The notes under the pieces were generated by a model, which was not told the origin of the DNA, ran no database searches, and saw only the letters and a list, made by a program, of their open reading frames with translations. A stretch of DNA of 53,508 nt from a virus (taxonomy: Duplodnaviria > Caudoviricetes): the IMG/VR virus record IMGVR_UViG_3300046171_000007, positions 1-53,508 of that record; one strand, given 5' to 3'. Position 1 is the first letter of the stretch, and the number at the start of each line of letters is the position of its first letter. Shown here in pieces: positions 4,144 through 31,214 of this stretch. A program made the translations under genes and the position numbers.

Positions 4144-4442
4144 GTGTCGAATATCGTGGCATTACATTCCCAGGATATAACAAACCGATTAAGTCAAACC
4201 GTGAAGGTAAGAAGATGATGGTTCTTGCCAAGGAGGGTGACAAGGTTAAGTTAATCCACTTTGGTGCTACAGGTTATGGTCACAATTACAGTGCTGCAGC
4301 GCGTAAGTCATTTCGTGCTAGGCACAAATGTGACACAGCGAATGACAAGATGACTGCTCGGTACTGGGCATGTCGTCATCTGTGGAAAGGGCCAAGTGGT
4401 AGCAAGAAGTCCAGCCCTAAGTCACGCAAAGGAAAATACTAA
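4140..4442 (+). CDS. Basic hypothetical protein (DUF6321-like)
   Basis: RKSFRARHKC...ARYWAC motif; coupled start/stop overlaps. Confidence 0.75.
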   Translation: MSVEYRGITFPGYNKPIKSNREGKKMMVLAKEGDKVKLIHFGATGYGHNYSAAARKSFRARHKCDTANDKMTARYWACRHLWKGPSGSKKSSPKSRKGKY

Positions 4443-4693
4443 TGGCTAAGAAGAATAAAAAGAATGACGACGTAATGGTTGTCTCAATTGGTGTAGGCAC
4501 TATGCCAGCAAAGAAGCTGAAAGAAAAGATGAAGAAGGCTGAGATGGCAATGGGTGGTATGGCTAATGGTAAGAAGCATATGTATTCTGCTGGTGGCAAT
4601 GTTACTGACAAGCTGCCAAACAAAGGCTTGCAAAGGCTGGCATCTACAACCAAAGGACGGGAAGCTGTACGTAACATGGGCTTTGATGTCTAG
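4442..4693 (+). CDS. Small basic protein with xxGG motifs
   Basis: MAMGG, YSAGG; K-rich. Confidence 0.75.
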   Translation: MAKKNKKNDDVMVVSIGVGTMPAKKLKEKMKKAEMAMGGMANGKKHMYSAGGNVTDKLPNKGLQRLASTTKGREAVRNMGFDV

Positions 4694-4695
4694 TA

Positions 4696-5265
4696 GTGCA
4701 TCCTGTAGAGCAAGACATACGTAATTGGTCTGCCAATTTTCTTGAAGTACCGAATGCCAAGTTAAATGGCTTACCCCCATGCCCCTATGCAAAACAGGCA
4801 TGGCTAGAAGATAAAGTAACATTCAGTATCAACACTGGGCTGGACGGACTTGTAGAGGAAGTGCAGCAGTTTGAGTCCCACGACTCTGACATAGTTGTGT
4901 GGGCTAGTGAGTACTTACCTGTCATGGAATACTTGGATGGCTTCTGTGACGGCATAAATGAAGCACTGTCTGTGTCAGGGATTGACTTACACCTGATGCA
5001 GTTTCACCCAGACTACGGCGCAGATGAAGCCGGTCTGGACTTTTTGTTACAGCAAGGGGTAAGTGACCCTGACCTAGAATACTGCATGGTCTTTGTGCAG
5101 AAGCTGTCGCTACTGGATGATGCGGCATTAAGTCTGGAGAAGTCTGACTATTACACGAACTTCCCGACCGATACATATGAAGCCTTAGTGCTTGACAGAC
5201 GGAGATTACGAAATGGTAATGAAGAAAAAGATGCGTGGCGGCGGCATGATGAAGACAGCAGCTAA
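4696..5265 (+). CDS. Hypothetical protein (DUF1415-like)
   Basis: LPPCPYAK and FHP motifs. Confidence 0.65.
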   Translation: MHPVEQDIRNWSANFLEVPNAKLNGLPPCPYAKQAWLEDKVTFSINTGLDGLVEEVQQFESHDSDIVVWASEYLPVMEYLDGFCDGINEALSVSGIDLHLMQFHPDYGADEAGLDFLLQQGVSDPDLEYCMVFVQKLSLLDDAALSLEKSDYYTNFPTDTYEALVLDRRRLRNGNEEKDAWRRHDEDSS

Positions 5266-5341
5266 AAAGAAAATGATGCGTGGCGGTGCAGTTGCCAAGA
5301 AGAAGATGATGCGCGGTGGCGTAGCTAAAAAGAAAAAGTAA
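5213..5341 (+). CDS. Protamine-like peptide (42 aa)
   Basis: Not in track; GGAG RBS; MVMKKKMRGGGMMKTAAKKKMMRGGAVAKKKMMRGGVAKKKK. Confidence 0.8.
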   Translation: MVMKKKMRGGGMMKTAAKKKMMRGGAVAKKKMMRGGVAKKKK

Positions 5342-5452
5342 ATGGCCAAGCAATACGCAAACAGCTTTATGAAAAAGAAGCGTATTCGTAGACCCGGAGT
5401 TCATAAGAAAAATGCGAACAAGCGTAACAAACCTAAAACGTACTTCGGTTAA
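5342..5452 (+). CDS. Small basic peptide (36 aa)
   Basis: MAKQYANSFMKKKRIRRPGVHKKNANKRNKPKTYFG; abuts the previous stop. Confidence 0.6.
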   Translation: MAKQYANSFMKKKRIRRPGVHKKNANKRNKPKTYFG

Positions 5453-5555
5453 GTACTTCGGTTGGGGTTTGCTCTATATGGGCAAGCCTTTTACCGCTGT
5501 TGGCAACTGGTTCTGGAAACGGCACCGTGCTGTACTGGATTGGAATAACAAGTGA
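5412..5555 (+). CDS. Small hypothetical protein (47 aa)
   Basis: MRTSVTNLKRTSVKYFGWGLLYMGKPF...; GTGA overlap with the next gene. Confidence 0.55.
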   Translation: MRTSVTNLKRTSVKYFGWGLLYMGKPFTAVGNWFWKRHRAVLDWNNK

Positions 5556-6301: not shown

Positions 6302-6302
6302 G

Positions 6303-6641: not shown

Positions 6642-6646
6642 AGGAG

Positions 6647-6925
6647 ATGGCACGTGTCGCTAAAAAAGCCCCCGCAAAAAAGAAAACCGCATCGGCTAGA
6701 ACGCAAAAGAAATCGACTGGAAAGGTTAGCCTTGCGCCGGGGGGTTCGGTACCAAGCAAATCTAGAGTTAACCAAGCTGGCAACTATACTAAGCCCACAA
6801 TGAGAAAGAACCTATTTAATAAGATTAAAGCAGGTGGCAAAGGTGGCAATCCAGGCCAGTGGTCTGCACGTAAGGCGCAGATGCTTGCGAAACAATACAA
6901 AGCCAAAGGGGGCGGCTACAGATAA
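6647..6925 (+). CDS. Basic protein, N-terminal half of a DUF5872-like domain
   Basis: YTKPTMR...KGGNPGQWSARKAQ...GGGY. Confidence 0.7.
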   Translation: MARVAKKAPAKKKTASARTQKKSTGKVSLAPGGSVPSKSRVNQAGNYTKPTMRKNLFNKIKAGGKGGNPGQWSARKAQMLAKQYKAKGGGYR

Positions 6926-6927
6926 AA

Positions 6928-7792: not shown

Positions 7793-7872
7793 TGGCATTC
7801 GGCTACTGAAAGAGGACGTGCCAGATTGGGAAGATAGACTGGCATTGATACAAAGTTATATAGAGGTGAAAT

Positions 7873-8941: not shown

Positions 8942-8969
8942 TGTGGCCATATAACGAGGAAGAGTGGAA

Positions 8970-9344
8970 ATGGCTAGACAGCTAAACGAAAGACAGCAGA
9001 AGTTCCTTGAGGTACTGTTTGAGGACGCGGGTGGTGACATGGTGCTTGCCAAGAAGATGGCAGGTTACTCTGATACCTCTAGCACGACTGCTATAATCAA
9101 GGGTCTGAAAGAGGAAATTCTAGAGGCCACCCAGATGTACATGGCACGTAATGCGCCAAAGGCTGCAATGGCTATGACCGGCGCACTGTACGACCCGACT
9201 GAACTTGGCATTCGTGACAAGATGTCTGCCGCCAAGGAACTGCTTGACCGTGTAGGTCTGGTCAAGACTGAGAAGATGCAGGTGGAAGCAACCGGCGGTG
9301 TTATGCTGATGCCACCGAAAGCCGCAGTAGAGGAGGATGACTGA
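8970..9344 (+). CDS. Terminase small subunit candidate
   Basis: LNERQQKF...AKKMAGYS HTH-like start; AAKELLDR. Confidence 0.55.
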   Translation: MARQLNERQQKFLEVLFEDAGGDMVLAKKMAGYSDTSSTTAIIKGLKEEILEATQMYMARNAPKAAMAMTGALYDPTELGIRDKMSAAKELLDRVGLVKTEKMQVEATGGVMLMPPKAAVEEDD

Positions 9345-9955
9345 TGCAGGGCAAAATTAAAGCGACTATGAAACTTGCAGATTTTTTAGCGCAAGCTACT
9401 GGACGACAACTTAATAGGCTAGGCGACAAACTTGGTATGAATAAAGATATCTTGGATGGTATGTCTGAGAATCAAGTAAAGGGTGCTATTCTTGATGAAA
9501 GTCAAAAATACATGCGTAATAAACGTAAGAATATTAATCGGCGTGTTGGTGCTGCTGCCGCTGGTGGTGCTGCCACCTATGGCGTCGTTGACTTTATTCA
9601 TGATATGCTTGGTATCTCTTCCGTTGCTGATGGCACCCTGTCAGCTGCTGAACGATCAAAAGGAACTGACGAAAAATTTGGGGAAAAGACTAAACCAACG
9701 GCACCACGCGAAAGTAAAAAAGATGACATGCCAAAGTCAAAGCCCAAACCCAAGCCCAAACGTAAGCCTATGCCAAAAACCCTGCCGAAGCCAAAGCCAA
9801 AGCGGCAAAAGAAAGAAGATTCTGGCGTAACCTTCCAGTTTGAAACTGTAAATAAAAACAAAGGCGGTTCTGTCACAAAATCTAGCAAAGGCGCACAAGA
9901 CTTCCGTAAAGGCGGTATGGTCCTGTCAACTGTGGACAACCGCAAGAAGCGATGA
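9344..9955 (+). CDS. Basic low-complexity protein (PK repeats, xxGG motifs)
   Basis: KPKPKPK; KNKGG; FRKGG. Confidence 0.7.
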   Translation: MQGKIKATMKLADFLAQATGRQLNRLGDKLGMNKDILDGMSENQVKGAILDESQKYMRNKRKNINRRVGAAAAGGAATYGVVDFIHDMLGISSVADGTLSAAERSKGTDEKFGEKTKPTAPRESKKDDMPKSKPKPKPKRKPMPKTLPKPKPKRQKKEDSGVTFQFETVNKNKGGSVTKSSKGAQDFRKGGMVLSTVDNRKKR

Positions 9956-10158: not shown

Positions 10159-10510
10159 AGAAGAAAACGAGTGGGTGCAGATACCTCGCATTGCAAGGAC
10201 TGTCCCATTCGGTTATAAGCAAAACGAAGAAGACCCCGACATTCTTGACCCTATTCCAGTTGAATTAGACTTGCTGGAGAAGGCACGTAGGCACGTAAAT
10301 CAGTATTCCTACCGTGAGGTGGCCAATTGGTTGAGTGCAAATACTGGACGATACATTTCGCACGTGGGATTAAGAAAACGGTTAGGTAATGAAAAACAAC
10401 GTAAGAACCAAGCTGCAAGCCTCCGCAAGTGGGCAGAATATGCGGAAAAGGCAATCGCCAAAGCGAAAGCCCTTGAAGAAGAAAGAACCGGAGCAAAAGC
10501 CAACGGTTAG
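10109..10510 (+). CDS. DNA-binding (HTH) protein upstream of terL
   Basis: VPFGY...SYREVANWLS...ISHVGLRK. Confidence 0.65.
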   Translation: MTRSAGRWKLPQPTDIKEENEWVQIPRIARTVPFGYKQNEEDPDILDPIPVELDLLEKARRHVNQYSYREVANWLSANTGRYISHVGLRKRLGNEKQRKNQAASLRKWAEYAEKAIAKAKALEEERTGAKANG

Positions 10511-11949
10511 CATAGAAGACGTTTCATATGAAACAGAAGCTATTGAAGAACATGCTAACGTACTGTTTAAGCCTAACCCCGGACCACAGACAGAGTTTCT
10601 TGCCGCAGCGGAACGTGAAGTTCTTTACGGCGGCAGTGCAGGGGGCGGTAAGTCATACGCAATGCTTGCTGACCCACTGCGTTACATGGGACATCCGCAA
10701 TTTAGTGGACTCCTGCTACGACACACAACAGAAGAATTGAGGGAACTCATATTCAAGTCGCAGGAGTTGTACCCAAAAATCTGGCCAGGCATTAAGTGGT
10801 CAGAACGAAAGATGCAGTGGACCGCGCCATCTGGCGCAAGGTTGTGGATGTCATATCTCGACAGAGATGATGATGTCTTGCGTTATCAGGGTCTGGCATT
10901 TAGCTGGATAGGCTTTGACGAGTTGACACAATGGGCCACACCATACGCATGGAACTACATGCGATCTCGTCTACGGTCCACTGCACCTGACTTGCCTATC
11001 TTCATGAGGGCTACAACTAACCCCGGAGGACGGGGGCATCACTGGGTCAAGAAGATGTTTATTGATCCAGCCCCGTACAATAAGTCGTTTGATGCAACAG
11101 ACCTTGAAACTGGTGAAGTACTGAAGTATCCAGCCTGGACACCAAAAGGCAGGAAAGTCTTTGTTCAAGCGGCGATTTATTCCCGCAAGGCTTGCTGACA
11201 ATCCTTACCTATCCGAATCAGGTGACTACGAAGCAATGCTTCTGTCACTACCAGAGCAACAGAGAAGGCAACTTCTTGATGGTGATTGGGATATTAAAGA
11301 GGGTGCAGCCTTTACGGAGTTTGACCGCACTATTCATGTGGTTGATCCTTTCCCCATTCCTAATAATTGGGTTAAGTTTAGGGCTTGCGATTACGGCTAC
11401 GGTTCATATAGCGGGGTTCTGTGGTTTGCTGTTAGTCCTTCTGAGCAACTTATTGTATACCGTGAGCATTACGTGTCAAAAGTTTTGGCGACGGATTTGG
11501 CAGAACAAATCTTGGAACTTGAGTCAGGTGATGGCAATATTAAGTACGGTGTCCTTGATAGTTCTCTTTGGCATAAGCGCGGCGATACTGGCCCTAGCTT
11601 GGCAGAACAGATGATTATGAAAGGGTGTCGTTGGCGTCCATCAGACAGAAGCAAAGGCAGTCGTGTAGCTGGCAAGAACGAAATTCATAGGCGTTTACAG
11701 GTAGACGAATTTACAGAGGAACCTAGACTTGTATTCTTTAATAGCTGCACAAATGTCATATCACAGTTACCGGCCCTCCCGATTGATAAAAAGAATCCAG
11801 AGGACATTGACACACATAGTGAAGACCACTTGTATGATGCCCTGAGATATGGTATAATGTCAAGACCAAGGTTTAGCATATTTGACTATGATCCTATGGG
11901 ACGCCCATCAGGTGGTATGCAGGTAGCAGACTCCACATTCGGATACTAA
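10389..11949 (+). CDS. terL: Terminase large subunit (apparent 1-nt insertion at about 11134; start uncertain)
   Basis: Walker A YGGSAGGGKS, Walker B IGFDE, TTNPGG, nuclease DYG...DHLYDALRY; removing one C gives YPAGHQKAGKSLFKRR. Confidence 0.92.
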
Positions 11950-11959
11950 GGAAATTAAT

Positions 11960-14098
11960 ATGGAAGAAGATGACATTCTAATCGAAGACGATTCAATCGC
12001 ATTGGATGACTCTGATGATAGTGATGCCGAAGATATTGGCGTATCTTCCATCATTGATTTTATTCAGGACCGATACAACAAGGCTGAAGACTATCGGTAC
12101 AACGACGAAGAACGCTGGCTGAAAGCGTATCGCAATTACCGTGGCTTGTATGGCCCAGATGTTCAGTTCACCGAAACAGAAAAGTCTCGCGTCTTTATTA
12201 AGATTACCAAGACCAAGACGCTGGCAGCGTATGGCCAGATTACTGACGTACTGTTTGCCAACAGTCGCTTTCCTCTTTCTATTGAACCTACAGAACTCCC
12301 AGAGGGCGTTGTAGAAAATGTACACTTTGATCCGCAAGCACCTGACATGGGTGCCGGTGGTCCAGAGATGGCCAGCCCCTACGGCTTTGCAGGTGACGGT
12401 ATGCAGCTTCCAGCGGGTGCTACAGAGAAGACCCTGCTGGACATGCTTGGCCCACTACAGGAAAAGCTGGACCCTGTTCAGGACAAGCTGAAGGAAGGTC
12501 CGGGTGCGACACCTACGGCTGTGACATTCAGCCCCGCAATGGTTGCGGCCAAGAAGATGCAGAAGAAGATTCATGACCAGCTGGAAGAGTCTAGCGCAAC
12601 CAAGTATCTGCGCAGCACGGCATTCGAGATGGCACTGTTTGGCACGGGCGTAATGAAGGGTCCGTTTGCTGTAGACAAAGAGTATCCTAATTGGGATGAC
12701 GATGGCGAGTACGATCCGGTATTCAAGACGGTGCCGCAGGTTTCTCACGTATCTGTCTGGAACTTCTATCCAGACCCAGATGCTAACAATATGGACGAGG
12801 CACAGTTTGTCATTGAACGACATAAGATGTCTCGCACTCAGCTTCGTTCTTTGAAGAAGCGTCCCTACTTCCGTGGCACTGTCATTGATGAGGTTATCTC
12901 TCGCGGAGAAAACTATACCAAGAAGTATTGGGAAGATGATCTGTCCGACTATGCACCAGAGCATGGCATTGACCGCTTTGAGGTTCTTGAGTATTGGGGC
13001 ATGGTCGATGTTGAGATGCTCATGGAGCAGGGCGTAGACATTCCCAAAGACTTCCAAGAGTTTGACGAGTTACAAGCTAACGCATGGGTATGTAATGGCA
13101 AGCTGATCCGTCTGGTGCTTAATCCTTTCAAGCCGTCAAAGATTCCGTACATGGCTGCACCGTATGAACTCAATCCTTACAGCTTCTTTGGCGTAGGTAT
13201 TGCAGAGAACATGGACGACACGCAGACGTTGATGAACGGCTTCATGCGCATGGCTGTGGACAATGCCGTACTGTCAGGCAATCTGCTTATTGAGGTTGAT
13301 GAAACCAATCTGGTACCTGGCCAAGACCTGTCCGTATATCCGGGCAAGGTATTCCGTCGCCAAGGCGGTGCGCCGGGTCAGGCTATCTTTGGCACAAAGT
13401 ATCCTAATGTGTCACAAGAGAATATGATGATGTTTGATAAGGCACGTGTGCTGGCAGATGAAAGCACCGGCTTCCCGTCCTTTGCACACGGACAGACTGG
13501 TGTGTCCGGCGTAGGCCGTACAGCTAGTGGCATCTCCATGCTGATGGGTGCTGCACAGGGTTCTATCAAGAGTGTCATCAAGAATGTGGACGACTATCTG
13601 CTTCGTCCGCTAGGCGAAGGACTGTTCCGGTTCAACATGCAGTTTGACTTTGACCCTGAACTCAAAGGCGACCTTGAGGTAAAGGCACGTGGTACTGAAA
13701 GCCTGATGGCTAATGAGATTCGCAGTCAGCGTCTCATGCAGTTCCTGCAGATTGCAAGCAACCCAGCCCTCGCACCGTTTGCCAAGTTCCAGTATGTAAT
13801 CACAGAGATTGCAAAGTCTATGGACCTTGACCCCGACAAAGTTGTGAACAATATGAATGAAGCCGCCCTGCAAGCTGAGATACTTAAAGGGTTCCAAGCA
13901 CCGCTTCCAGAAGGGCCACCTGCTGCTCCTGCTGGCGCGGACGTTATGGACCCGACAGGTGCGGGTGGTGGAACAATGGGTGTAGGACAAGCACCAATAC
14001 CGGGTGAACAAGGATTTAGTGGAAATGGTGGACAAGGAATTGTACAGCAAGCTGAAGCCGCTGGTGGCCAACAACCGCCAGTGGACGCACTTCAGTAA
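11960..14098 (+). CDS. Portal protein
   Basis: 712 aa after terL; FGTGVMKGP, FYPDP, RTASGISML. Confidence 0.88.
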   Translation: MEEDDILIEDDSIALDDSDDSDAEDIGVSSIIDFIQDRYNKAEDYRYNDEERWLKAYRNYRGLYGPDVQFTETEKSRVFIKITKTKTLAAYGQITDVLFANSRFPLSIEPTELPEGVVENVHFDPQAPDMGAGGPEMASPYGFAGDGMQLPAGATEKTLLDMLGPLQEKLDPVQDKLKEGPGATPTAVTFSPAMVAAKKMQKKIHDQLEESSATKYLRSTAFEMALFGTGVMKGPFAVDKEYPNWDDDGEYDPVFKTVPQVSHVSVWNFYPDPDANNMDEAQFVIERHKMSRTQLRSLKKRPYFRGTVIDEVISRGENYTKKYWEDDLSDYAPEHGIDRFEVLEYWGMVDVEMLMEQGVDIPKDFQEFDELQANAWVCNGKLIRLVLNPFKPSKIPYMAAPYELNPYSFFGVGIAENMDDTQTLMNGFMRMAVDNAVLSGNLLIEVDETNLVPGQDLSVYPGKVFRRQGGAPGQAIFGTKYPNVSQENMMMFDKARVLADESTGFPSFAHGQTGVSGVGRTASGISMLMGAAQGSIKSVIKNVDDYLLRPLGEGLFRFNMQFDFDPELKGDLEVKARGTESLMANEIRSQRLMQFLQIASNPALAPFAKFQYVITEIAKSMDLDPDKVVNNMNEAALQAEILKGFQAPLPEGPPAAPAGADVMDPTGAGGGTMGVGQAPIPGEQGFSGNGGQGIVQQAEAAGGQQPPVDALQ

Positions 14099-14243
14099 TT
14101 ATCTTGATGCGTTAATTGCAACGCACCAGAAGACTTTAGAACAAACAGACAATAATGTAGAGATACTCCGTGCGCAGGGTTCTATTTCTGTGCTACGTAA
14201 GATCAAGCGTCTCAGGGATGAAGTGAGTGAACTAGATGGCTGA
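14025..14243 (+). CDS. Small conserved protein after the portal
   Basis: RAQG motif typical of post-portal genes. Confidence 0.7.
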   Translation: MVDKELYSKLKPLVANNRQWTHFSNYLDALIATHQKTLEQTDNNVEILRAQGSISVLRKIKRLRDEVSELDG

Positions 14244-16810
14244 AGAGCAGGCACCAAACTTTCAGGGTATGCCACAGAGTGCGCGTACTAAAAAGTATAA
14301 TAAGTTATACGATACTCTGACAAGTCAGACCGTAGGTGATAGAAGTTTTGCTGACATGTATGGTGCCTTGCAGGAAGCAGAGGTAGGCGCATATAAGGAA
14401 AAGACTGGCTGGCCCTACATATTTACGGGTGCCTCTAAAAAGTCTTCCGCATTTGGTCCTTTGCAGATTACTTATAGCACAGCGTTGGACTATTTTTATC
14501 CGGGCGATAGCGAAACTGAAAAGCGCGATAATATGAAGGCCGGTAACTTTAAGGAAGGTTACACCCAGCTTCCCAGTGATGTCAAAAGCTACATTAAAGG
14601 TTTTATTGAACAAGGCATTAATAAACGTAATCGAAAGGGTGGTGTATACGGCAGCTATGGTGTTGGCGATATTTCTGCAGAAGACCATAAAAAACACTAT
14701 CCATTTTTGGCCGCAGTTCATGTAAATGAAAAGAAAAAACTTGCGGATGCAGATACGGTTCCCGCTTTTGTAAATGCACATTTTGGTGACATTCAAGAGG
14801 ACGATCCGCAGAAAGAGAATAAAGAACGGCAGCTGGCCAATCTACAAACAAAGGTTAGCGATACACTAGGTGTAACTGTACGGCCTGTCACAACAGATGT
14901 CGCAGAAGGCTTCTCTGAACCCGTCACTGTTACACCTGAACCAGAACCAAGCGCCAGAACCAAGCCCCGTAACACCTGAAACAAAAACGCAAACAGATGA
15001 AGCATTTACGCTGGACTATGAAGGCGAACTGCCGGATATTGGTGACGAAGTAAAGTTGCCCGACCTACCAGCAACAGATGTAGCACCCGACACAACGGAT
15101 GCCATTCCTCCTACTATAGTAGATAAACCAGAGGATAAAAACATTTTTGAACGGGCATATGATTATATGTTCGGTGACGACGATACACCAGAAGAAATTC
15201 AGCAACGTGAGCAGACTAGGCAACGGCTGTTGCAGAGTTTAGAAATGAACGAGGGCGGTATGGCTATTGAAAAGCAAATGGAAATGTTTGAAGACGGCGG
15301 TCTTATGGACGAGGGAGGCACAGTTGATCCAGTATCTGGCAACGATGTACCACCAGGTTCTACACAGGAAGAAGTCCGCGATGACATTCCTGCCCAGCTG
15401 AGTGAGGGCGAGTTTGTATTTCCTGCAGACGTAGTTCGGTTCATCGGACTAGAGAAGCTGATGCAGATGAGACAAGAAGCGAAGGCAGGTCTTGCTCGTA
15501 TGGAAGCTATGGGCCAGATGGGCAACAGTGAAGAAGCTGTACTGCCAGACGATATTCCGTTTGACCTTGACGATCTTGACATGGAAGATGAACCTATGGA
15601 GTTCCAGACGGGCGGTCTTGTACCTAACCCTTATGGGACGTATCAACAGGCGTCACAGTTTGCCACATATGGCCAACAGCCGTATCAGGCACCTCAGACT
15701 TCCTACAGCACCTATGGCACCTCAAGCCCCACTACAGACGGGCTTCCAGCCGCTTACAACTCCTGTTCAACCAGTGACCACAGCTACAGGCACGGTGCCT
15801 TCATTTGAGGACATCATGCCCACAACTACTGGCCGGTATGATGAACTAAAAGAATACATCAACCAGAGACGGGCGAGTCGATGACTATTCCGTTTGTTGA
15901 CGGCAAGCCTATTTATCCTATTCCGCAAGGTTTTATTCCAAAGCCGACAGAACAAGTTGAGGCTGTTGTTCCAGATACTACAGTCCCAACGGCACGAGTA
16001 GCACCAGTTTCCGGTGATGACGATAGAGATGATGGCCTTGGACTCGGCGGTGGCAGAATTGGCATGGGTGGTTTTTCGGACGGAACTGGTCGTAAACAGA
16101 ATGCTACTATTATGGGTGTCTCATTTGATATGGGTGAAGGTTTCTTGGGTGGTGCCGCTGGTATAGGTGCAACTGCTCTTGGACTTGCAACTGGTAAAGG
16201 CATTCCAAAAGACGCTACCGCTACGTTTACGTATGACAATGCTACATATACTGTATCCGGCGATGAGTATAATGACTTGAAAAAGTCAGGTTATACAGGA
16301 GATTTGGCTGACAAAATTGTTGCATCTCTTAAAACTGAAAGCGGTGTGCGTAGGGGAAGTATTGAATATAATAAAGAAACTGGAACCTTCAAAGATAAAA
16401 AATCTGGTGAGACTTTCCAAGATAGGGACGATGATAATGATGGCATCGGCGATATTCTCAATAAAGCGGGTGAAAGTATCTATTCTAAAGTAGACATAAA
16501 TGATCTTCTAGGTTCTTCACAAAAAATGAATCAATCTGAAAAAGACATTGCATCTGCGTATAATGATGCACAGTTTGAAGCGTTTGATCCTGGGCCTGCA
16601 CCAGATAGCGGCGGATCAGATAGCGACGGCGGCGGTTATGGAGGCGGTCGCACAGAATCTGCTGGTGCAGATTGGAGTGCAGGTTCCGACTTTAGTGCAT
16701 CTGAACGAGAAGAATTGGGGCCGGGTTCGTACAACGCTGGTGGTCTAGCATCTAAGAAAAATCCCAAAGCCAAAAAGATGAAGCAAGGCGGTATAGCTTC
16801 TAAAAAATAA
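14236..16810 (+). CDS. Multi-domain virion protein: lysozyme/SLT-like N-domain, LSxGEFV domain, low-complexity tail (three apparent indels)
   Basis: Joins ORFs 14236, 14897, 15492 and 15881; AFGPLQIT..TA; DDIPAQLSEGEFV; six xxGG motifs. Confidence 0.65.
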
Positions 16811-21005: not shown

Positions 21006-21351
21006 ATGTCATTCCGTTGGCCTGTAAAAGACCCTGATGAAACACTTGACTACAGCATGGACTGGTCCCGCTGGCTAGACACTGCTACCATCTCGTCTGT
21101 AACTTGGTTTGTGAAAACGCCTGAGATTGGCAAGACGCAGATTGACGCAGGTGAGACACTGACCACAGCATCCGGTAGCACCGTAACTGACAGCATTCAA
21201 AACATCAGTCAGACAAATACAAATACTGTAGCCTACACTTAATCTTGGTGGCGGTGTACTAAATAGAGAATATACATTCACATGTCAAATTGTTGACAGC
21301 ACAGGCAGCACGGCTGAACGATCTGTTAAAGTAGCTATAAGGCAAAAATAA
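21006..21351 (+). CDS. Fibre adaptor-like protein (apparent 1-nt insertion at about 21232)
   Basis: KDPDETLDYSMDW; corrected frame ends ...TAERSVKVAIRQK* with TAATG overlap. Confidence 0.7.
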
Positions 21352-22082
21352 TGGCATATAATTATCTTGGACTTGTAAATGAACTTAATCGCCGCCTGAA
21401 TGAGACGGAACTTACCTCGTCCAACTTTGCCAGTGCTACGGGTTTCTATGCTCACGCTAAAGACGCAATCAATGCCTCGCTTCGTGACATCAACCAGCAT
21501 GAGTTCAACTGGCCGTTCAACCATGTAGAGCAGGAAGATGTGCTGTCAAGTGATGTCTCACGCTATGCTTTCCCTCACGACGCTAAACTAATTGACTTCG
21601 ACAGCTTCCGCATTAAAGAAGACAGTACACTTGGCAATGCCACCACACGTCTGGGCATTGTTACATACGAAGAGTATCTTGACAAGTATGTAGACCAAGA
21701 GTACAATTCTACAGGAAGACAGGGTGTACCACAGATGGTAGCGCACGGTCCTGCACTTGAGTACATTCTCACGCCGGAACCTGATGCAGCTTACACCATC
21801 GTGTATGAGTACTACCGCATTCCTGTAGACCTTGAACTATATGATGACGTACCGGCTGTGCCAGAACGCTTTAAGCATATTGTAGTAGATGGTGCTATGC
21901 ACTATGCCTACCTGTTCCGTGGCAATACTCAGGATGCACTTGTTGCCAAAGAGAAGTTTGAAGAAGGTATCAAGAACATGCGTTCCATGCTGATTAACCG
22001 GACATACTATGTACGTTCTTACATGATCCCACAGAACACTGGTGGTGGGGGCAGAATGGGCTATGCGAGGTTGCCCATCTAA
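21351..22082 (+). CDS. Head-tail adaptor / tail tubular protein A
   Basis: YLGLVN...LNE; WPF; P.PD..Y; position in the tail module. Confidence 0.75.
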   Translation: MAYNYLGLVNELNRRLNETELTSSNFASATGFYAHAKDAINASLRDINQHEFNWPFNHVEQEDVLSSDVSRYAFPHDAKLIDFDSFRIKEDSTLGNATTRLGIVTYEEYLDKYVDQEYNSTGRQGVPQMVAHGPALEYILTPEPDAAYTIVYEYYRIPVDLELYDDVPAVPERFKHIVVDGAMHYAYLFRGNTQDALVAKEKFEEGIKNMRSMLINRTYYVRSYMIPQNTGGGGRMGYARLPI

Positions 22083-23605
22083 TGGCTGACGCATGGCAGA
22101 CCCATTCGTTTGAATTTAAGGGTGGCTTGATTACAAACCTTTCTCCGTATCAGCAAGGTTTTCAGGCACCGGGTTCTGCACGTATCCTACGTAACTTTGA
22201 ACCTTCGATCTTTGGTGGGTACACACGTATTGAAGGCTTTGATAAGTTTGACAGCAATGCTCTGTCTAATACGGGTACGGTACGTGGACTGCATCGTTAT
22301 GATGATAAAGTGTTTGCCTGTCGCGGTGACGACTTATTCTTCTCGACAGGTTCCGGCTGGACACAAGTAAGTGACAATGTTGCATACAGCAGCGCAGGTG
22401 TCACAATCGGCGGTTCTGGTAAAGTACGTTTTCTGAAGTACGACTTTGACGGAACAGAAAAGCTGATGCTTGTAGATGGTACAGGCAAACCATATAGGTT
22501 CGACGGCACAACATTTGAACAGCTTACGTCTCTATCTAGTGATACAGCAGGTTCAAGTTTTGTAATCAACTTTAAAAACCACATCGTTCTTGGCAATGGA
22601 AAAAAGATAATTTTTTCTGCTCCATATGAAGATGATGACTTTACAATTGCTAACGGTGGTGGTATAATTAATGTTGCTGATACGATAACAGGTCTGATTG
22701 TCTTCCGTGAACAGCTTATCGTATTTAGTGAAAGCAGTATTAATGTTCTGAATGGCAACAGTGTATCAGACTTTACACTACAGCCTGTGTCCCGTGACTT
22801 GGGGTGTGTGGCAGAAGACACCATTCAGGAAATTGGCGGTGATGTAATCTTTCTTGGTCCAGATGGACTGCGCCTCTTTTCTGCAACAGATCGTATCGGT
22901 GACTTCAGTCTTGCTGCAATATCCAAAACCATTCAGGTTGAGATACTTGACTTGGTTACGAGTAGCCCCGGTGGATTTACCAGTACAGTCATTCGTGAAA
23001 AAAGTCAGTATCGACTGTTCGGGTACAATGCCACATACACAAACGCTTCGGCAAAGGGTATCGGTGCTACCCAGCTACAAGAGGGCATTGCCTTTAACGA
23101 CACGCGAGGCATCAATGCCTACGTAACGTACAGTGAGTATGACGGGTTTGCAGAACGTATCTACTTTGCCAATGCAGACGGATACGTGTATCAGATGGAG
23201 CAGGGCAACTCGTTTGATGGAGTAGACATTCCGGCAACTTTTGCCACACCTTTTATTCCGCTAGGTGACCCAAATGTGCGGAAGACAATTTACAAGGGAA
23301 CTACGTATCTGGATGTAAATGGCGACTTTGATCTTGAGTTCTCACTCAAGTTTGACTTTGACCAGCCGGGTTCAGTTCAGCCAGACTCAATACTTTCAAG
23401 TGATGCAGCTGCATCCATTACATACGGTTCTGGTATTTATGGCACGTCTTTGTTTGGTGTTAAACAAAAAGCCATATATGATGTTCAAACAGTAGGTTCA
23501 GGATTTACAGTGTCAATTCTATACGAAACAACAGGTACAAACACTGACGCTGTATTTACGATTGACGCTGCCACGTTGCAGTTTACGACTAACGCTAGGA
23601 GATAG
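22082..23605 (+). CDS. Tail nozzle / tail tubular protein B
   Basis: FKGGL start; beta-propeller-like; LGCVA...FLGPDG. Confidence 0.75.
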   Translation: MADAWQTHSFEFKGGLITNLSPYQQGFQAPGSARILRNFEPSIFGGYTRIEGFDKFDSNALSNTGTVRGLHRYDDKVFACRGDDLFFSTGSGWTQVSDNVAYSSAGVTIGGSGKVRFLKYDFDGTEKLMLVDGTGKPYRFDGTTFEQLTSLSSDTAGSSFVINFKNHIVLGNGKKIIFSAPYEDDDFTIANGGGIINVADTITGLIVFREQLIVFSESSINVLNGNSVSDFTLQPVSRDLGCVAEDTIQEIGGDVIFLGPDGLRLFSATDRIGDFSLAAISKTIQVEILDLVTSSPGGFTSTVIREKSQYRLFGYNATYTNASAKGIGATQLQEGIAFNDTRGINAYVTYSEYDGFAERIYFANADGYVYQMEQGNSFDGVDIPATFATPFIPLGDPNVRKTIYKGTTYLDVNGDFDLEFSLKFDFDQPGSVQPDSILSSDAAASITYGSGIYGTSLFGVKQKAIYDVQTVGSGFTVSILYETTGTNTDAVFTIDAATLQFTTNARR

Positions 23606-23607
23606 GC

Positions 23608-26600
23608 ATGGGTACTGGTTATACTCGTAATGATACCGCCAACAATATTGCAGACGGGAACGTCATTAACGCCTCTGACCTTGATGGCGAGTTTGATGCA
23701 GTTCAGGCGGCATTCAACGGAAGCACAGGCCACAGCCACGATGGCACAACAGGCGAGGGTCCGCAGATTGACACGGCGGGTCTTGCTGATGATGCCGTAA
23801 CTGGTGCAAAGATTGACTCGACAACCACGATCACTGCCGCTGGGTTTAGTGGCCCCTTGACAGGCACAGCCTCTAACGCAGCCCTGCTTGACAGCCTTGA
23901 CAGCACACAATTCCTTCGTAGCGATGCGGCGGATACCAAGACATCAGGTGACTTGTCGTTCAGTGATAGCGTTAAGGCAAAGTTCGGTGCTGGGTCTGAC
24001 TTGCAGATTTATCATGATGGCAGCAACAGTTTTATTGATGATTCTGGTACAGGAAACCTCTTAATCCGCAGCAACAGAACCATCATTCAGAAATACACAG
24101 GTGAAGTTGCAGGTGATTTTGTAGCAGATGGCGAGGCTGCGCTTTATTACGACAACGACAAGAAAATCGCCACCACCTCCTCCGGCATCGACGTGACCGG
24201 CACCGTTACTGCTACAGGTAATATTGAACTTGGAGATAGTGGCGGTGTTTCTACTGGACGAGTAAAGTTCGGTGATGGCGACGATTTACAGATGTATTTT
24301 GACGGAACAAGCAGTGTGATTTCTAGCGAAAACACTACTGACATGTATGTTCAGGCAAATAATATATATCTTCGTAGCAGTATTCCGGGGGCAGAAAACG
24401 GTATTGTTATTGCGGGTGATGGCGCAGTGACAGCTTACTACGACAACGCCGCCAAACTCGCCACTACAGCCTCCGGCATCGACGTGACCGGCACGGCAGT
24501 CACAGACGGCCTCACGGTTGCTGGCAACGTCAGCGTGGACGGCGGCACGATTAAGCTGGACGGTAACTACCCGACAGGCACAGAGAACGTGGCTGTGGGT
24601 GACACTGCACTTGATAGCGTTGAAAGTGGTGGGCAGTACAATGTGGCAGTAGGTTCTAAGGCTGGCACTGCAATTACAACTGGTGACCAGAATGTTGCTG
24701 TTGGTGCGTATACTCTTGATGCAACGACTACTGGCGGCAACAACACGGCTTTGGGTAAATCTGCTTTAGGAGCAAACACGACAGCATCTAACAACACCGC
24801 TGTCGGCACAAATGCACTCCTCGCAAACACCACCGGCACAAACAACACCGCTGTAGGTCAAATTTCCCTAGATGCTTGTACGACGGGTAGTGGCAACACC
24901 GCTCTAGGCCGTGCTTCTGCCAGTGCTTTAACCTCTTCGGATGACAACACTTATATTGGCTATCAGTCTAATTCTGTAGGAGTCTCAGGTGATGACAATA
25001 CGGGAGTAGGGGCGAATACTCTGTACAACAACGCTGCAGCGAACAACACCGCTGTCGGTTCAAATGCGCTATATGCCAACACCTCTGGCACGAATAACAC
25101 GGCAGTAGGAAGACAGGCACTAGATGCTAATACCACCTCATCGTACAACACGGCTGTCGGCTTTAACTCACTTACAAACAGCACTGGCGCAAGCAACACG
25201 GCTGTCGGCAACCAAGCACTAGAGACTAACACTTCTGGCACACGCAACGTGGCAGTCGGTTCTAGTGCGGGGTACAACACTTCATCAGGTGCAAACAACA
25301 CGGCTATTGGAACGGTTGCTTTGTATTCTAACACCACTGCCAGCAACAACACCGCCGTAGGCGATAGCGCACTGTTCGCTAACACCACTGCCACATACAA
25401 CACCGCTGTAGGCTACCGCAGTTTGGCAGCCAACACCACTGGCGCAACCAATGTATCTGTCGGCGGCGACTCTATGCTGGCGAACACCACCGGAAGCAAC
25501 AACGTGTCACTGGGCGTTGGTACTATGCTGGCGAACACCACAGGCGGTAACAACGTCGCTATCGGTAGACAGGCACTTGATGCAAACACCACAGCATCTA
25601 ACAACACTGCTGTGGGTTATCAAACACTGACTGCAAACACCACTGGTCGTGACCTTGTTGCTATTGGTTCTGGCGCATTGGACGCAAACACCACTGCCAA
25701 CAACAATGTCGGCATCGGTAAAAATGCGTTGGGTGTAAACACTACAGGCGCTAATAACACGGCACTTGGCACTGCGGCTTTGGACGCTAACACAACAGCA
25801 GACAACAACGTGGCGGTAGGTACAGCAGCACTTGGTGCAAACACCACCGGCGCAGAAACGTCGCGGTAGGTCGCTATCTCCCTTGACGCCAACACACATC
25901 AGGCGCAAGCACCGCTGTAGGCTACAACGCACTCACAGCTAACACCGGCGCATACAATGATGCGTTTGGTTACGCCTCGCTTCAGGCCAACACCTCTGGG
26001 ACAGCTAATGCTGCTTTTGGTTTTTCTGCGCTTCAAAACAACACGACGGCTAGTAACAACACCGCTGTGGGCTATCAGGCACTAGATGCTAACACCACTG
26101 GCACACTCAACACAGCAGTCGGCAAGGGTGCTTTGGACTCAAATACAACCGCTTCAGACAATACGGCTGTCGGCGGTGGTGCAATGGAGGACAATACCAC
26201 AGGCACAAACAACACTGCCGTAGGTCGTACAGCACTTGCTGACAATACTACAGGCGGTTCCAACACGGCTGTTGGTCGTGACGCACTAAAGGTGAACACC
26301 ACCGCATCAAACAATACGGCTGTTGGCAAAGATGCACTTCTTTTGAACACCACAGGCAACAACAACACAGCAGTCGGTGCAGAAGCCCTTGATGCAAATA
26401 CCGTAGGCGATAGAAATGTTGCTGTTGGTGTGGCCTCTCTTTCAACATTTAATCCTGCTTCTAATGCTGACACATACAACACGGCTGTAGGTTATGCGTC
26501 CTTAAAACTTGCTACAACCGGCACAAACAACACTGCAATCGGTGGATTGGCACTTACCGCTAACACCACTGGCGCAAGAAATGTTGCCGTTGGTGCAAAC

Positions 26601-27402
26601 GCCCTTGATGCGAATACTACATCAAGTGACTCTACTGCTATTGGGTACAACGCTTTAAGTGCAAAAACCGGCGGGTTTGGCGACCTTGCAATTGGCACGC
26701 GGCCTTTGCAAAGCCTTACAACAGGCCACAGCAATGTTGCGATTGGTACTTCTTATGCTGGATATGCGGGTGGGTCTGTAACAACCGGCACATTCAACAC
26801 TATGGTTGGCAATGATGCGGGGCGTTCAGCCACTACAGGAACCGTGAACACATTTATAGGGAATGGTTCTGGTGGACTGATAACAACTGGAAGCAAAAAC
26901 AGTGTTCTTGGTGGCCTACAACGGCAATCAGGGTGGCCTCGACATCCGCACATCCAGCAACCGCATCGTGCTGTCAGATGGCGACGGCAACCCTAGACTA
27001 TACATGAACGAAAACGGAATACTGTTTTCTCCCCCGACCCAAGACAACACCACCGCCGCTGGCGCTAACGTGTTTATCTCAGCCGGACAGTTTTATCGTT
27101 CAACATCATCTCAGCGTTACAAAAACACCATCACTGATGCCACACACGGCCTGACGGAACTGCTTGCACTGCGTCCTGTTACCTACAAAGGCAACAATGA
27201 TGGCGACACAATCTTCGGTGGCTTGATTGCTGAAGAAGTACACGACGCTGGCCTGACAGAGTTTGTTTCTTACGATGACCAAGACAGGCCAGACTCTCTT
27301 GCATACGGGAATATGGTGTCGCTGTGCATCAAAGCTATCCAAGAACAGCAAGCAACAATCACAGCACTTGAGGCACGTATTGCCACACTTGAGTCCAACT
27401 AA
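23608..27402 (+). CDS. Tail fibre with YadA-head-like repeats and C-terminal S74 chaperone (indels at about 25855-25950 and 26914)
   Basis: Dozens of 14-aa NTAVGxxALxANTT repeats; SSQRYK...GLIAEEV...Y..coiled coil. Confidence 0.85.
24179..24494 (+). repeat. Identical 25-bp direct repeats inside the fibre gene
   Basis: CCTCCGGCATCGACGTGACCGGCAC at 24179-24203 and 24470-24494. Confidence 0.9.
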
Positions 27403-27413
27403 AGGAGACTAAA

Positions 27414-27656: not shown

Positions 27657-27868
27657 TGAAACTCACTCCAGAGACACACATGGAACCTGCTTTCAAAACT
27701 CAGATGGAACTTGAGGCACACGAGAAAGAGTGTGCCATAAGGTACGCAGCAGTGCAGGAGAAACTGGAGTCTCTGGACAAACGCATGTGGCGTTTAGAAG
27801 CGATGATTATGGGTAGCACTGTTCTTGTGGTAGCTATGGTGGTCACTGTATTTATGGGAATTAAGTAA
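27656..27868 (+). CDS. Small coiled-coil membrane protein
   Basis: HEKECAIRY plus C-terminal TM helix. Confidence 0.7.
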   Translation: MKLTPETHMEPAFKTQMELEAHEKECAIRYAAVQEKLESLDKRMWRLEAMIMGSTVLVVAMVVTVFMGIK

Positions 27869-30800
27869 TGGCAATGTTCAAAGCATTTAAGCCTAGCGGC
27901 ATGGAAAAGATTGCTCGTGCTATGGGCTATCAGGGCAATATGCAGGGCTTTCAGAACTACCTTGCTCAAGACCCCATGCGTCAACAGCAGATGCAGACAT
28001 ACCAAAACAAGGCCATGCAAATGGCAAAGGGTGGTGTCGTGAAGATGCGTGAGGGTGGTATGCTTAAACCCGGTGTAACACCTGAAATGGTTGCTTCATT
28101 TCCGCAGATGGGTCAAGTCATGGGGCCAGCGCAAAATGCTGCTGGTGGTTATAATCCACAGACAGGACAGTTTACACCATTGAATCAACTGCCACAAGGT
28201 CCAGCCGGACAATTTGCACCCGGAACACTTGCACAAGCACAGAACCAGATGCAGATGTCTGGCAATATAACAGGCAATCTAGAAGATGCGTATGACCCGC
28301 GTGGACCCATCACTGATGGTAGACCTAGTTTTGGTGGACGATTGCCCGGATTAGGTGGACCAGCAGATAAAGTTGTTGCCGCACCTATCATGAGAGATTT
28401 GAGCAAGATGTTTGATACATCTATTATTGACCCCCGCACTGGATTTGCTCAAAGACTTAAATCTGATGGGACAATAGACGAAGGCCATTTTGGCGATTAT
28501 CAATTTTATGCTGATAAGGCTAAAAAGGATTACGAAACTAAACTTGCAGAGTTTCAGCGACGGCAAGCAGCACTAGGTCAAAACTTTACGTATGGTCAAC
28601 TGCAAGAGTTTCAACGAAAAGAAGGCATTCAAAATCTAAAGAATAAGCATCAAAACGTAGATACAGGTTTCTTTGACTCACCTGAATTTAAAAATATGAG
28701 AGGTGGTCCAGCAGGACAGGCTTTTACATATTCTCCTTACTTTGGTATGCACGGAGATACTTCTATTGGGACACAGGACCAAGCCTATGAGGCATACCTT
28801 CGTAGAACAGGGCAAACAAACAAACTTCGTGGCGGTTCTGAATTTGTTCAAGCGCCGGGGCAACTACCGCGCTTAGAGAAAGCGCTGCCAGTTATGCCTA
28901 CCACAACGGAGGCACCTTCACCTGACGGATTAAATCCAAGCATAACTATGGACACTAATTATGGTCAGCCCCTAATGTCCGCAGATGGCACTATGGACAT
29001 GGGTACAATGAATACTCAACAACCTGACTACAGTGGCATGACATATGAACAAGCAGTAGCAAGACAATCACAACGTGATGTGAAATCACCAGCAGAGGCT
29101 GCAGCTATTCAGGCAGCAATTGCACGTGGTCCTGTTGCACAAACCCCACAAACACAACTGCCACAACAGGCTGTACCTACCTTTACAATGCCTGAACCAA
29201 CTACCACTACTGTAACACAGTATCAGGATGCTGACGGTAATGTATACGCAAGTGAGGCAGATGTTCCAGATGGTGTCACAACAACTCCCATAGAAGTTAC
29301 ACAAACAAAACAGCCAACTATTGGTGACATCATGGCACAACAGGCATTTTCGCCAGGTCTGCCAACTGGTGGAGCAGTTGCGCCTGTTGGTATGCAAGCA
29401 ACTGCTGACCAGCTTATTGATCCAACAACTGGCCAAGTCAGTGGTGCAATGGCTGTACCAACCGCTATGGCAACGACTGCTATGGCTGTGCCGTCACAAG
29501 AGGCAGATGCCGCACAGGTGCAAGCAGCTACTGCCGCCCCTGCCGTTGCTTCTGCGCTGGATGCAACAACGGCTGCGACAGGTGCTGTATCACCGAATGC
29601 CAACATTGTAGCTGCACAACAGACTGCTTCATCTGTTGGTAGTCTTGATGCGGCACAGGGTAATGCAACACTTATTGACAATCCTGTACAGCGTGAATTG
29701 CAACAGGGTGAACTTATCTCTGGTGCAGCTGATGCCGAAAAGGCTGCAAAGTTTACTGAGCAGATCGAAGCGGCACAGGCCACACCATCCCAGCAAGCTA
29801 CTGTACAAGGTCAGCTTGCACAGCTTACTGCAAACTTTGACGCAAAGAACCCACCTGCTTGGGCTGCGGGTGCCATGCGTAATGCTACAGCACAGATGGC
29901 CGCACGTGGGCTTGGTTCGTCCAGCCTTGCAGGTCAGGCTTTGGTACAGGCTAGCTATGGAAAGCGCACTGCCAATTGCACAAGCTGATGCTGCAACTAC
30001 TGCACAGTTTGAGGCACAGAACCTTTCCAATCGCCAGCAACGTGCCATGCTTGCTGCACAACAACGTGCAGATTTCATAGGTATGGAGTTCACACAGGAC
30101 TTCCAAGCACGTGTACAGAATGCGGCAAAGATTAGCGACATTGCTAACATGAACTTCACTGCTGAACAGCAGGTACAGCTTGAGAACAGTCGCCTGACTA
30201 ATACAATGAACCTGCAAAACCTGTCCAACTCACAGGCAATGGTTATGGCAGAGGCTGCTGCACTTGCCCAGCTTGACACAGCAAACCTGAACAATCGCCA
30301 ACAGGCTGCAGTACAGAATGCACAGGCATTCCTGCAGATGGATATGGCTAACCTGTCTAATCGTCAGCAGACCAGCATGTTCAAGGCACAACAGCGTATT
30401 CAAAGTCTGTTCACAGATCAGGCAGCAGAGAATGCAGCCCGTCAGTTCAATGCAACATCTGAGAATCAGGTGAACCAGTTCTTTGCAAATCTTAACTCAC
30501 AGGTTGCACAGTTTAATGCGGCACAGTCTAACGCACAGGCGCAGTTCAATGCTGGTCAGCGTAACACTGTAGAACGCTTTAACGCTGAACTGAATAACCA
30601 GCGTGACCAGTTTAATGCCACCAACCAGCTTGCCATTGCTCAGAACAATGCAGTATGGCGTAGAGAGATTGCTACGGCAAATACTGCCGCCATCAACCGT
30701 GCTAACGAGTTGAACGCTACTGCCGCACTAAACATTTCTAAACAAGCCTATGACAATCTTTGGACATATTATTCTGATACAATGGAATTTGCTTGGAAAA

Positions 30801-30976
30801 GTGCAGAGAATGAACTTGACCGTCTTAACAGTATGTCTATTGCGCAATTGAGTGCAGATGCTACAACCCGTGCGCAACAGCTGGCAAGTAGTTCCGCAGC
30901 AGGTACTGCTATCGGCGGTCTGATTGGTACACTTGGTAGTGCGGCTATTGAATACGGTCTTGGAAATTTATTCTAG
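27868..30976 (+). CDS. Internal virion (ejection) protein, Q/N/A-rich helical (apparent insertion at about 29952)
   Basis: Joins 27868..29988 and 29636..30976; QFNA repeats resembling DNA-pilot tube proteins. Confidence 0.75.
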
Positions 30977-30992
30977 GTTGAGGTAAGGTAAC

Positions 30993-31214
30993 ATGGCATA
31001 CACAAATCCTAGTAAGGGTGTATATCTAAATATGCAACGCATGAGGGCTATGGAAAAGGCGAAGGAAAAACCTGCACCAAAGCGTGGTGGTCTTCTTAGT
31101 TCGCCAATGAAACGTATCAAGCGTGAAGAAGAGACAGACTTTTCCATGAAACGTGTTGCACATTACATGGACATCCTTCAACAGAAACGACAGGAACTAA
31201 AAGATGGCAGTTGA
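30993..31214 (+). CDS. Small basic virion-module protein
   Basis: RBS present; KRGGLLS. Confidence 0.7.
   Translation: MAYTNPSKGVYLNMQRMRAMEKAKEKPAPKRGGLLSSPMKRIKREEETDFSMKRVAHYMDILQQKRQELKDGS

Follow-up and report, generated by a model that had tools for sequence, protein, structure and literature searches.

A sequence module common to tape measure proteins was found in an HMO-2011-type marine podophage represented by the IMG/VR virus record IMGVR_UViG_3300046171_000007 (53,508 bases, estimated completeness 97%; referred to as the window, which is the whole stretch of DNA that was analysed). The portal protein of this phage is 82% identical to that of Puniceispirillum phage HMO-2011, the next relatives being Roseobacter CRP phages and some pelagiphages, and the window is organised into a + arm (~3.9-37.8 kb) of lysis, packaging and structural genes and a - arm of replication genes. 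The module lies in the portal-adjacent gene at 14236..16810 (+), where a near-invariant core with the signature LSxGEFV is framed by short hydrophobic-x-x-G-G units (xxGG motifs). Judged by profile comparison, the core is homologous to a C-terminal part of the tape measure proteins of siphophages, and the observations support the view that xxGG is a short, conserved and functional element shared by several structural-arm proteins that are otherwise unrelated. We favour, at a probability of about one half, the reading that an ejected protein has in this module an anchor or plug which folds on binding, and that xxGG is a portable docking staple.

The gene at 14236..16810 encodes a multi-domain protein homologous to HMO-2011 gp49, sits between the portal gene and the scaffold and coat genes, and is interrupted by three frame breaks (near 14951-14967, ~15690 and ~15875). 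Its alignment with intact relatives indicates a single gene in this contig, as HMO-2011 gp49 is one coding sequence of 762 amino acids in the same place, adjoining the portal gene, and P0151, an intact metagenomic homologue of 825 amino acids that is 99% identical over the domain query, maps to 14236-14967 and then, in another frame, to 14951-16807, with the middle stretch out of frame. Relatives vary in their N-terminal domains, these being PF18013 (Phage_lysozyme2; E 7.7e-22 in the relative P0003), PF25735, LysM or none recognised, and the window's own N-terminal domain matched no family in the Pfam scans, which took in 40 of the ~73 gene models. A fold search with the full-length model against the PDB gave nothing at E <= 0.001, the best matches being a GH19 chitinase (E 0.25) and Slt (E 1.6). 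The product ends in a basic tail with two motifs (YNAGGLASKKNPKAKKMKQGGIASKK; 16730..16807, +) that is conserved in relatives, 131 of 252 of which carry the MKxGGxASK tail (...KKMKxGG[LMI]ASKK) within their last 15 residues, the preceding sequence being unrelated. A second conserved island, PTF..YDELxEYxNxxTGQxxxIPFVNGxPIYPIPxGF, lies 3' of the module (P0151 ~509-560, window ~15790-15960), spans one of the frame breaks and has a predicted local distance difference test score (pLDDT) of ~91 at residues 531-560 of the AlphaFold2 model.

An earlier, sequence-only reading of the window had noticed the LSxGEFV stretch at about 15380-15420, and DDIPAQLSEGEFV is indeed encoded at 15380-15418. It belongs to a composite module (15239..15625, +), in which the motifs MNEGG, FEDGG and MDEGG precede the invariant core, and a helix and then an acidic linker lead on to FQTGG; the core itself, VRDDIPAQLSEGEFVFPADVVRFIGL, comprises 26 residues (15374..15451, +) and was delimited as the part common to tape measure proteins by hhalign. 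The general layout can be written as xxGG unit - (GPGT..SD) - IPAxLSxGEFVxxAxxVxxxG..L - spacer - xxGG unit, with each xxGG unit flanked by hydrophobic residues, and in 252 relatives the motifs stand at offsets of -55, -40, -35 and +65 to +75 from the core. At E <= 0.001, a 101-residue query around LSEGEFV matched 3098 cluster representatives, of which the top 150 are 68-100% identical over the matched stretch, despite a cluster cut at 50% identity. The matching proteins range from 160 to 1600 residues and the module stretch forms a near-invariant island within them: 61 columns are invariant in 113 aligned relatives, including F351, G354, G355, L356 and all of DDIPAQLSEGEFV. Pfam and NCBIfam searches with the LSxGEFV domain gave no match, the module is unnamed in Pfam, and a PDB sequence search with the window's domain alone gave only chance-level matches (E 1.3 and 2).

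AlphaFold2, run on the intact homologue with the alignment of 113 sequences, predicts confident domains at residues 8-211 and ~530-760 (pLDDT ~90), whereas the module has 10-residue means of 48-70, falling below 50 in the core, and the C-terminal tail has means of 44-50. All six motifs of the intact homologue lie in stretches with 10-residue means of 44-55, between or after the confident domains, so that the claim that motifs fall at domain boundaries or near termini is borne out for the 14236 product. Invariance combined with a predicted failure to fold in isolation is what one usually sees in segments that fold on a partner. A complex prediction with three copies of the module (P0151 333-468) scored 0.00 against a mark of 0.42, which is neither support nor counter-evidence.

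The link to tape measure proteins is indicated by PHROG scans of the window, in which two weak matches were both to tape measure families (phrog_3547, E 0.0016; phrog_5448, E 0.0036). When 50,697 phage records were searched by tblastn with a 66-residue core, 90 of them gave a match, and among the 60 rows listed, 14 belong to HMO-2011 or CRP phages and 46 lie outside this group; in the latter, the label tape measure protein is carried by 37, another 4 duplicate such records without a label, and the remaining 5 (four pelagiphages and one other) are hypothetical. Matches due to chance would not cluster in a single class of genes. All seven segments considered, six fetched from tape measure proteins plus lambda gpH, hold an xxGG unit followed by GPGT..SDSIPAxLSxGEFVxxAxAV..G..L, and a second, downstream unit (e.g., RFATGGxV) is clear in 6/7, the DSL-LC04 protein ending right after the core. 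The module also occurs in Burkholderia phage and actinophage tape measure proteins, and lambda gpH reads FATGGF TGTGG KYEPAGIVHRGEFVFTKEATSRIGVGNLYRLMRGYATGGYVG. When a profile built from HMO-2011-type sequences only was aligned by hhalign with one built from tape measure proteins only, the probability was 97.6% and the E-value 4.8e-12 over the 26 columns VRDDIPAQLSEGEFVFPADVVRFIGL. In the window, the pattern PAx[LI]xxGE[FY]V followed by AxxV...G...L is present (hhalign, eight-row alignment A1), as are the flanks, with FEDGGL and MDEGGT upstream and FQTGGL downstream, while the host protein is not of the tape measure type: it has no Pfam or NCBIfam match (PF09718 and TIGR01541 included), and its gene is portal-adjacent in a podophage. 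A profile from alignment A1 found Douge gp16 (961-1028 and 1412-1472), lambda gpH (724-796) and JBD30 gp46 (1018-1092) among PDB sequences, and did not find T5; since this profile holds tape measure rows, its E-values measure similarity among tape measure proteins and not similarity to the window. The Pfam model Tape_meas_lam_C stops at lambda residue 701, before the module, and NCBIfam TIGR01541 covers the module in phi644-2. A homologue search with lambda gpH 715-800 is uninformative for diversity, the at least 120 matches listed being 99-100% identical.

Two side observations concern the ends of these proteins. The last 13 residues of lambda gpH are MRDGGLFSGGGR, with an xxGG motif (MRDGGL) at the extreme C-terminus, most of the MRDGGLFSGGGR stretch falling in the modelled residues 818-849 that contact gpI, and the 14236 product ends likewise in MKQGGIASKK. 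In actinophage tape measure proteins (Gordonia, Rhodococcus), the downstream xxGG is followed by an H..D...H.H arrangement that resembles M15-type cell-wall peptidases, and the post-portal protein of phiM6 (L097 476-2914) has a similar M15-like look, both seen by eye only.

Outside the module, the motif had been cited in a series of + arm open reading frames (ORFs), and every cited instance is present in their translations: MAMGG and YSAGG in 4442-4693, three MRGG in a 42-residue ORF at 5213-5341, LAPGG in the ORF at 6647, KNKGG and FRKGG in that at 9344, MNEGG, FEDGG, MDEGG, FQTGG, YNAGG and MKQGG in 14897-15808 and 15881-16810, MAKGG and MREGG in that at 27868, and KRGG in that at 30993 (all +). 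The protein at 4442..4693 is small and Lys-rich, with a tandem xxGG pair, EMAMGGM...HMYSAGGN (~4544-4600), as its conserved core. A homologue is encoded in 62 of 80 IMG/VR loci, only the tandem motif KMAxGGMxxGKxHMYAAGGxV is conserved across 50 distinct sequences of the family, and the alignment with HMO-2011 gp67 spans this stretch only. The protein has no Pfam match above threshold and no PHROG match, and the protein atlas returned only unnamed viral clusters for it, the named ones lying below 0.9. The 42-residue, Lys-rich ORF at 5213..5341 consists of three KKKMMRGG repeats and has a tblastn match in 80/80 IMG/VR loci, which were fetched through its neighbour gene (itself 64-95% identical); a repeat ORF occurs in each of the 78 loci that leave 120 nt or more for it. 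The window's ORF shares 61% identity with an unannotated ORF that fits between gp65 and gp66 of HMO-2011 (L001 36629-36781, -) and has no PHROG match, and the members of its family consist nearly exclusively of K, M, R, G and A and contain 2 to 11 xxGG units, most often 4.

Further along the arm, the basic Lys/Pro-rich protein at 9344-9955 carries KNKGGS and FRKGGM at its C-terminus (9854..9922), and is 22% identical to HMO-2011 gp68; both proteins are Lys/Ala/Pro-rich and end in DF-x-x-GGMV, the gp68 ending being DFNRGGMV. A large late protein of the structural arm (27868..30976, with one frame break near 29909-29955) starts with a 64-residue module that ends in MAKGGVVKMREGGM (~28021-28062) and reads MAKGGVVKMREGG at its end, and this module is conserved at residues 1-64 of HMO-2011 gp25 and 449-510 of CRP-1 gp35, which are junctions with variable inserted domains. 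In the 73-residue protein at 30993-31214, KRGGLL (31080..31097) is weakly supported, being only a partial motif, with GGLL(S)SP aligning with an HMO-2011 ORF (L001 8309-8539). In the proteins that carry the signal, the motif is a conserved island amid divergent sequence. Among six genomes, flanked modules and small Lys-rich GG proteins occur together in the window, HMO-2011, CRP-1 and CRP-9, HTVC033P has neither, and in CRP-3, which encodes no small Lys-rich GG protein, the core lacks its FEDGG flank.

Counts of the strict motif [MFYL]xxGG[AVILMFYW] were compared with 2000 within-protein shuffles over 42 + arm and 31 - arm ORFs, the pattern having been defined post hoc, after inspection of the sequence. 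The + arm holds 16 instances against 4.94 expected, a number reached by 0/2000 shuffles, and 12 instances of MxxGG against 2.26 expected (0/2000), while the - arm holds 3 against 1.84 (569/2000). The proportion of GG dipeptides that fit the strict motif (16/97 in the + arm, 3/20 in the - arm) does not differ between the arms, a comparison without power. Without the three pieces of the 14236-16810 gene the + arm count is 11 against 4.5 expected (8/2000 shuffles), and it falls to 8, with 4.3 expected, when the 5213 ORF is removed as well (152/2000). The excess is borne by about five proteins, and the instances at 11960, 19611, 34236 and 7116 and the second in 31728 look like chance. In automatic ORF sets of relatives, the structural strand shows an excess in HMO-2011 (12 vs 4.6), CRP-1 (11 vs 5.1) and CRP-9 (13 vs 5.5), but not in CRP-3 (7 vs 6.6) or HTVC033P (2 vs 5.6). 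The predicted enrichment over shuffles therefore holds for the + arm of the window and three relatives and fails in two, and the proposal that many virion proteins carry the motif reflects a real excess and is overstated, because the excess is concentrated in few proteins. Conservation is the stronger argument: a conserved element in unrelated structural-arm proteins, tied to LSxGEFV, is supported, and the role as protease or reader that the sequence-only reading gave to this domain is not.

What the analysis shows is the core homology, the flanking motifs in both phage types, the invariance, the modular architecture, and the lack of a recognisable protease family in the searches described below; the favoured reading builds on these. 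As the module is common to tape measure proteins and relatives swap hydrolase domains, the 14236 product is read as a counterpart of tape measure or ejection proteins and is a candidate ejected or internal virion protein. It would be the ejection protein of the phage, made up of a swappable wall-degrading head, a tape-measure-type module and a basic tail, which would be loaded into the particle, expelled via the tail channel and active in the cell envelope. The module would be unfolded alone and fold on a partner, thereby keeping the protein anchored in the portal-tail channel, or plugging that channel, until infection, much as other authors have proposed for this region in JBD30 gp46 and lambda gpHC, with the xxGG units as its docking staples. 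Copies of the staple in the 5213 and 4442 proteins, the C-terminus of the 9344 protein and the N-terminal module of the 27868 protein may recruit those proteins to the same site, each copy serving as an encapsidation or docking tag; an encapsidation role, one of the two which the sequence-only reading had proposed for the motif, fits here. Both the anchoring and the recruitment of other proteins are what we infer from these observations.

Structural accounts of siphophage tails, taken here for their passages on the tape measure protein, offer a setting for such a module. In lambda, only gpH residues 818-849 are modelled, ~690-817, which belong to the gpHC fragment, being unresolved (PMC10721106, PMC12617516), and gpHC stays at the tail tip with gpI, where it is modelled as blocking the channel (PMC12617516). 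A piece of ~14 kDa is lost from gpH at a glycine-rich part close to the C-terminus, the site and catalyst being stated in that account as unknown (PMC12617516); by mass, the cut would lie near residues 708-725, just upstream of the module at 724-796. In JBD30, only the last 33 residues are resolved and residues 1022-1066 are predicted to form a hook of two helices and a hairpin, which, the authors speculate, serves as a baseplate anchor for the protein once it has been cut at 1066 (PMC11445458), and in Douge, only residues 1658-1699 are resolved (PMC13033339).

Several points weigh against the favoured reading. The module is unresolved in the lambda, JBD30 and Douge maps, at least as these accounts describe them, hence "anchor or plug" draws on predictions of other authors and on analogy, and the partner is hypothetical. 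Low diversity of the alignment may add to the low pLDDT of the module. Part of the tape measure evidence is circular, in that the segments were found with the window's own core. The profile has no match at E <= 1 in the genomes of T7, P22, N4 and phiM6, the last of which is portal-related, so that the module is not a general podophage feature, and the post-portal proteins of phiM6 and HTVC033P hold, by eye, neither core nor motifs. That the virion contains the 14236 product and the small proteins is a presumption; the small proteins adjoin lysis genes and could have another role. A literature search found no virion proteomics for HMO-2011-type phages, and the ISME J 2022 comparison contains neither "mass spectrometry" nor "protease" (0 occurrences each).

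A bolder version of the favoured reading, which we consider a long shot, takes the staple and the PAxLxxGEFV core as a portable "channel cargo and plug" code that has spread to Lys-rich peptides travelling with the DNA, with the module directing the cut that adjoins it, as in the processing of lambda gpH to gpH*. If true, this code would give the 50-year-old problem of gpH cleavage a defined sequence element.

The rival that survives best, though we hold it to be unlikely, is that the xxGG units are proteolytic maturation sites, cut after GG by a host enzyme, an unrecognised phage protease or self-processing directed by the core; such cuts would separate enzymatic domains from the rest and trim the small basic proteins. 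Adenain cleaves at (M/I/L)xGG, a site that resembles the motif, and motifs lie at the junctions of swapped domains in the 14236 family and in 27868/CRP-1 gp35, while actinophage tape measure proteins run on past the downstream xxGG into a peptidase-like region (by eye). Cleavage at GG retains some probability in view of lambda gpH, whose cut would, by mass, fall shortly upstream of the module, and pb2 of T5 is likewise cut between a hydrophobic stretch and its muralytic domain (PMC10038345). However, the mapped T5 site follows Arg1127, located between this hydrophobic stretch and the muralytic motif, and not GG (PMC10038345). The last motif of the 14236 product is 5 residues from the C-terminus, so that a cut there would free only IASKK, and the extent of invariant sequence far exceeds the need of a cleavage site. 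Virions of phiRIO-1, from a different phage group, are reported to show no clear trace of processing, and its genome to hold no identifiable protease gene (PMC4819975).

The search for an enzyme also counts against cleavage. Six-frame searches with Peptidase_C5 (PF00770), Peptidase_C48 (PF02902) and the prohead protease families S78 (PF04586) and S77 (PF03420) gave 0 matches at E <= 10, and, S74 aside, no other peptidase, ClpP/S49 included, was found among the 40 Pfam-scanned proteins; these searches did not extend to the ASFV C63 family, nor to ClpP/S49 in six frames. The sole protease-type family found in the window is Peptidase_S74, a self-cleaving intramolecular chaperone domain in which the tail fibre ends (26902-27402, +; E 8.9e-5). 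The remark that the genome has no conventional prohead protease thus holds for the 40 scanned proteins and for the four families in six frames, and the proposed analogy with adenain and pS273R finds no clan CE enzyme of the C5 or C48 family in the six frames to carry it. We saw no evidence of an enzyme in the module either. LSxGEFV had been suggested as a protease or an autonomous reader domain, a role that does not agree with its being a shared tape measure core with a core pLDDT below 50 and a serine that is not conserved. Invariance in the eight-row alignment is confined to two glycines outside GExV and to the G, E and V within it, and the module has no conserved nucleophile. The idea that LSEGE supplies a Ser/Glu catalytic pair was rejected, as the Ser column varies (His in lambda, Met in Thonko; JBD30 reads SNDEFM).

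A function of the Lys-flanked xxGG units in nucleic acid binding or DNA condensation, with the tape measure likeness limited to the 14236 gene and the small Lys-rich proteins and the basic 14236 tail binding the packaged genome, appears improbable. The composition of the 5213 family with its 2 to 11 units, the Lys/Ala/Pro-rich character of HMO-2011 gp68 and the 9344 protein, and the 14236 tail (KPKPKAKKMKxGG) would suit it, but the core-adjacent copies of the motif are acidic (FEDGG, MDEGG) and those of tape measure proteins neutral (FATGG, YATGG), hence the motif is not defined by charge. What is conserved, GG together with hydrophobic residues at -3 and +1, suits a protein contact better than a DNA contact, and no DNA-binding family was matched. 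That the recurrence across the genome is mostly chance or composition, with a real feature in the 14236 gene alone, is the least probable alternative and is largely refuted by conservation: the pattern was picked post hoc, several cited or matching instances are not conserved and the excess shrinks without the 14236 pieces and the 5213 ORF (8 vs 4.3, 152/2000), yet conservation in the 4442 family, 9344/gp68 and 27868/gp25/CRP-1 gp35 is restricted to the motif stretches, and the 5213 repeat ORF is kept in 80/80 loci with the neighbour gene at 64-95% identity.

Other + arm features of the window are a lysozyme gene (8438), the terminase large subunit (10389-11949, with a frame change near 11137-11186), a portal of the SU10 type and an SU10-type adaptor (21351-22082), all from Pfam scans, a scaffold-like gene (16903) from a PHROG family match, a coat gene assigned by synteny with HMO-2011 gp47, a nozzle gene (22082-23605), and the tail fibre (23608-27402), which is apparently split into three ORFs. 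Four large genes carry frame breaks, seven in all, relative to intact relatives (10389-11949, 14236-16810, 23608-27402 and 27868-30976). Since the essential terminase is among the interrupted genes, contig errors seem more likely than biology, and programmed frameshifts were rejected for the 14236 gene, with the terminase and two other large genes interrupted as well. A 100-residue protein at 4140-4442 (+) resembles an internal part of "minor head protein and DNA pilot", PHROG 220 (E 1.1e-18), with a further, weak match to DUF5754. On the - strand, a 158-residue ORF (38211-38687) matches the Na+/Pi cotransporter PF02690 (E 1.8e-15) and is possibly an auxiliary metabolic gene or a gene fragment, and the replication arm encodes a tyrosine integrase (49142-50065; PF00589, E 1.8e-20) and a pyrimidine dimer DNA glycosylase (50556-51068; PF03013, E 2.5e-5).

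According to PMC9038755, the HMO-2011-type phages form a dominant marine viral group of broad distribution. Apart from portal, coat and terminase, hardly any of their structural proteins has an assigned function. The portal-adjacent gene now gains a proposed role as an ejection protein gene with swappable wall-degrading heads, tied to tape measure proteins, and the MRGG-repeat gene is conserved in 80/80 loci though unannotated in the HMO-2011 reference record. A shared, invariant and putatively fold-on-binding element is a concrete target for focused cryo-EM and, in lambda, where the module adjoins the cleavage described above, for mutagenesis. The module lies inside a known NCBIfam model of lambda-type tape measure proteins, in which it is neither named nor delimited. 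Searches of the literature found no phage paper with the motif strings of the module, and, among the papers listed, nothing bearing on it in work on C-terminal glycine-rich motifs or cleavage of tape measure proteins; to our knowledge, its presence in a portal-adjacent podophage gene and the spread of the staple to small Lys-rich proteins are undescribed.

Three known systems invite comparison. With the adenain and pS273R systems, the window has in common that a hydrophobic-x-G-G-type sequence recurs in several proteins, small basic ones included, whereas it shows no match to a clan CE protease (C5, C48), and its motif needs hydrophobic residues at -3 and +1 and stands within a larger conserved module. 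Ejection proteins of the T7 gp16 type resemble the 14236 product in being large proteins of the structural module, with a hydrolase domain in relatives and expected ejection, but no sequence relation was found, the genomes of T7, P22 and N4 having no match to the module profile at E <= 1. The third is the C-terminal module of tape measure proteins (lambda, JBD30, Douge), which has the same core with xxGG on both sides, and tape measure proteins, as is expected of the 14236 product, are expelled through the tail; they often carry cell-wall hydrolase domains. In contrast to these, the window's gene belongs to a podophage with an SU10-type portal and adaptor and does not encode a tape measure protein, its module has three upstream motifs and an acidic linker, and the staple is found in other proteins as well.

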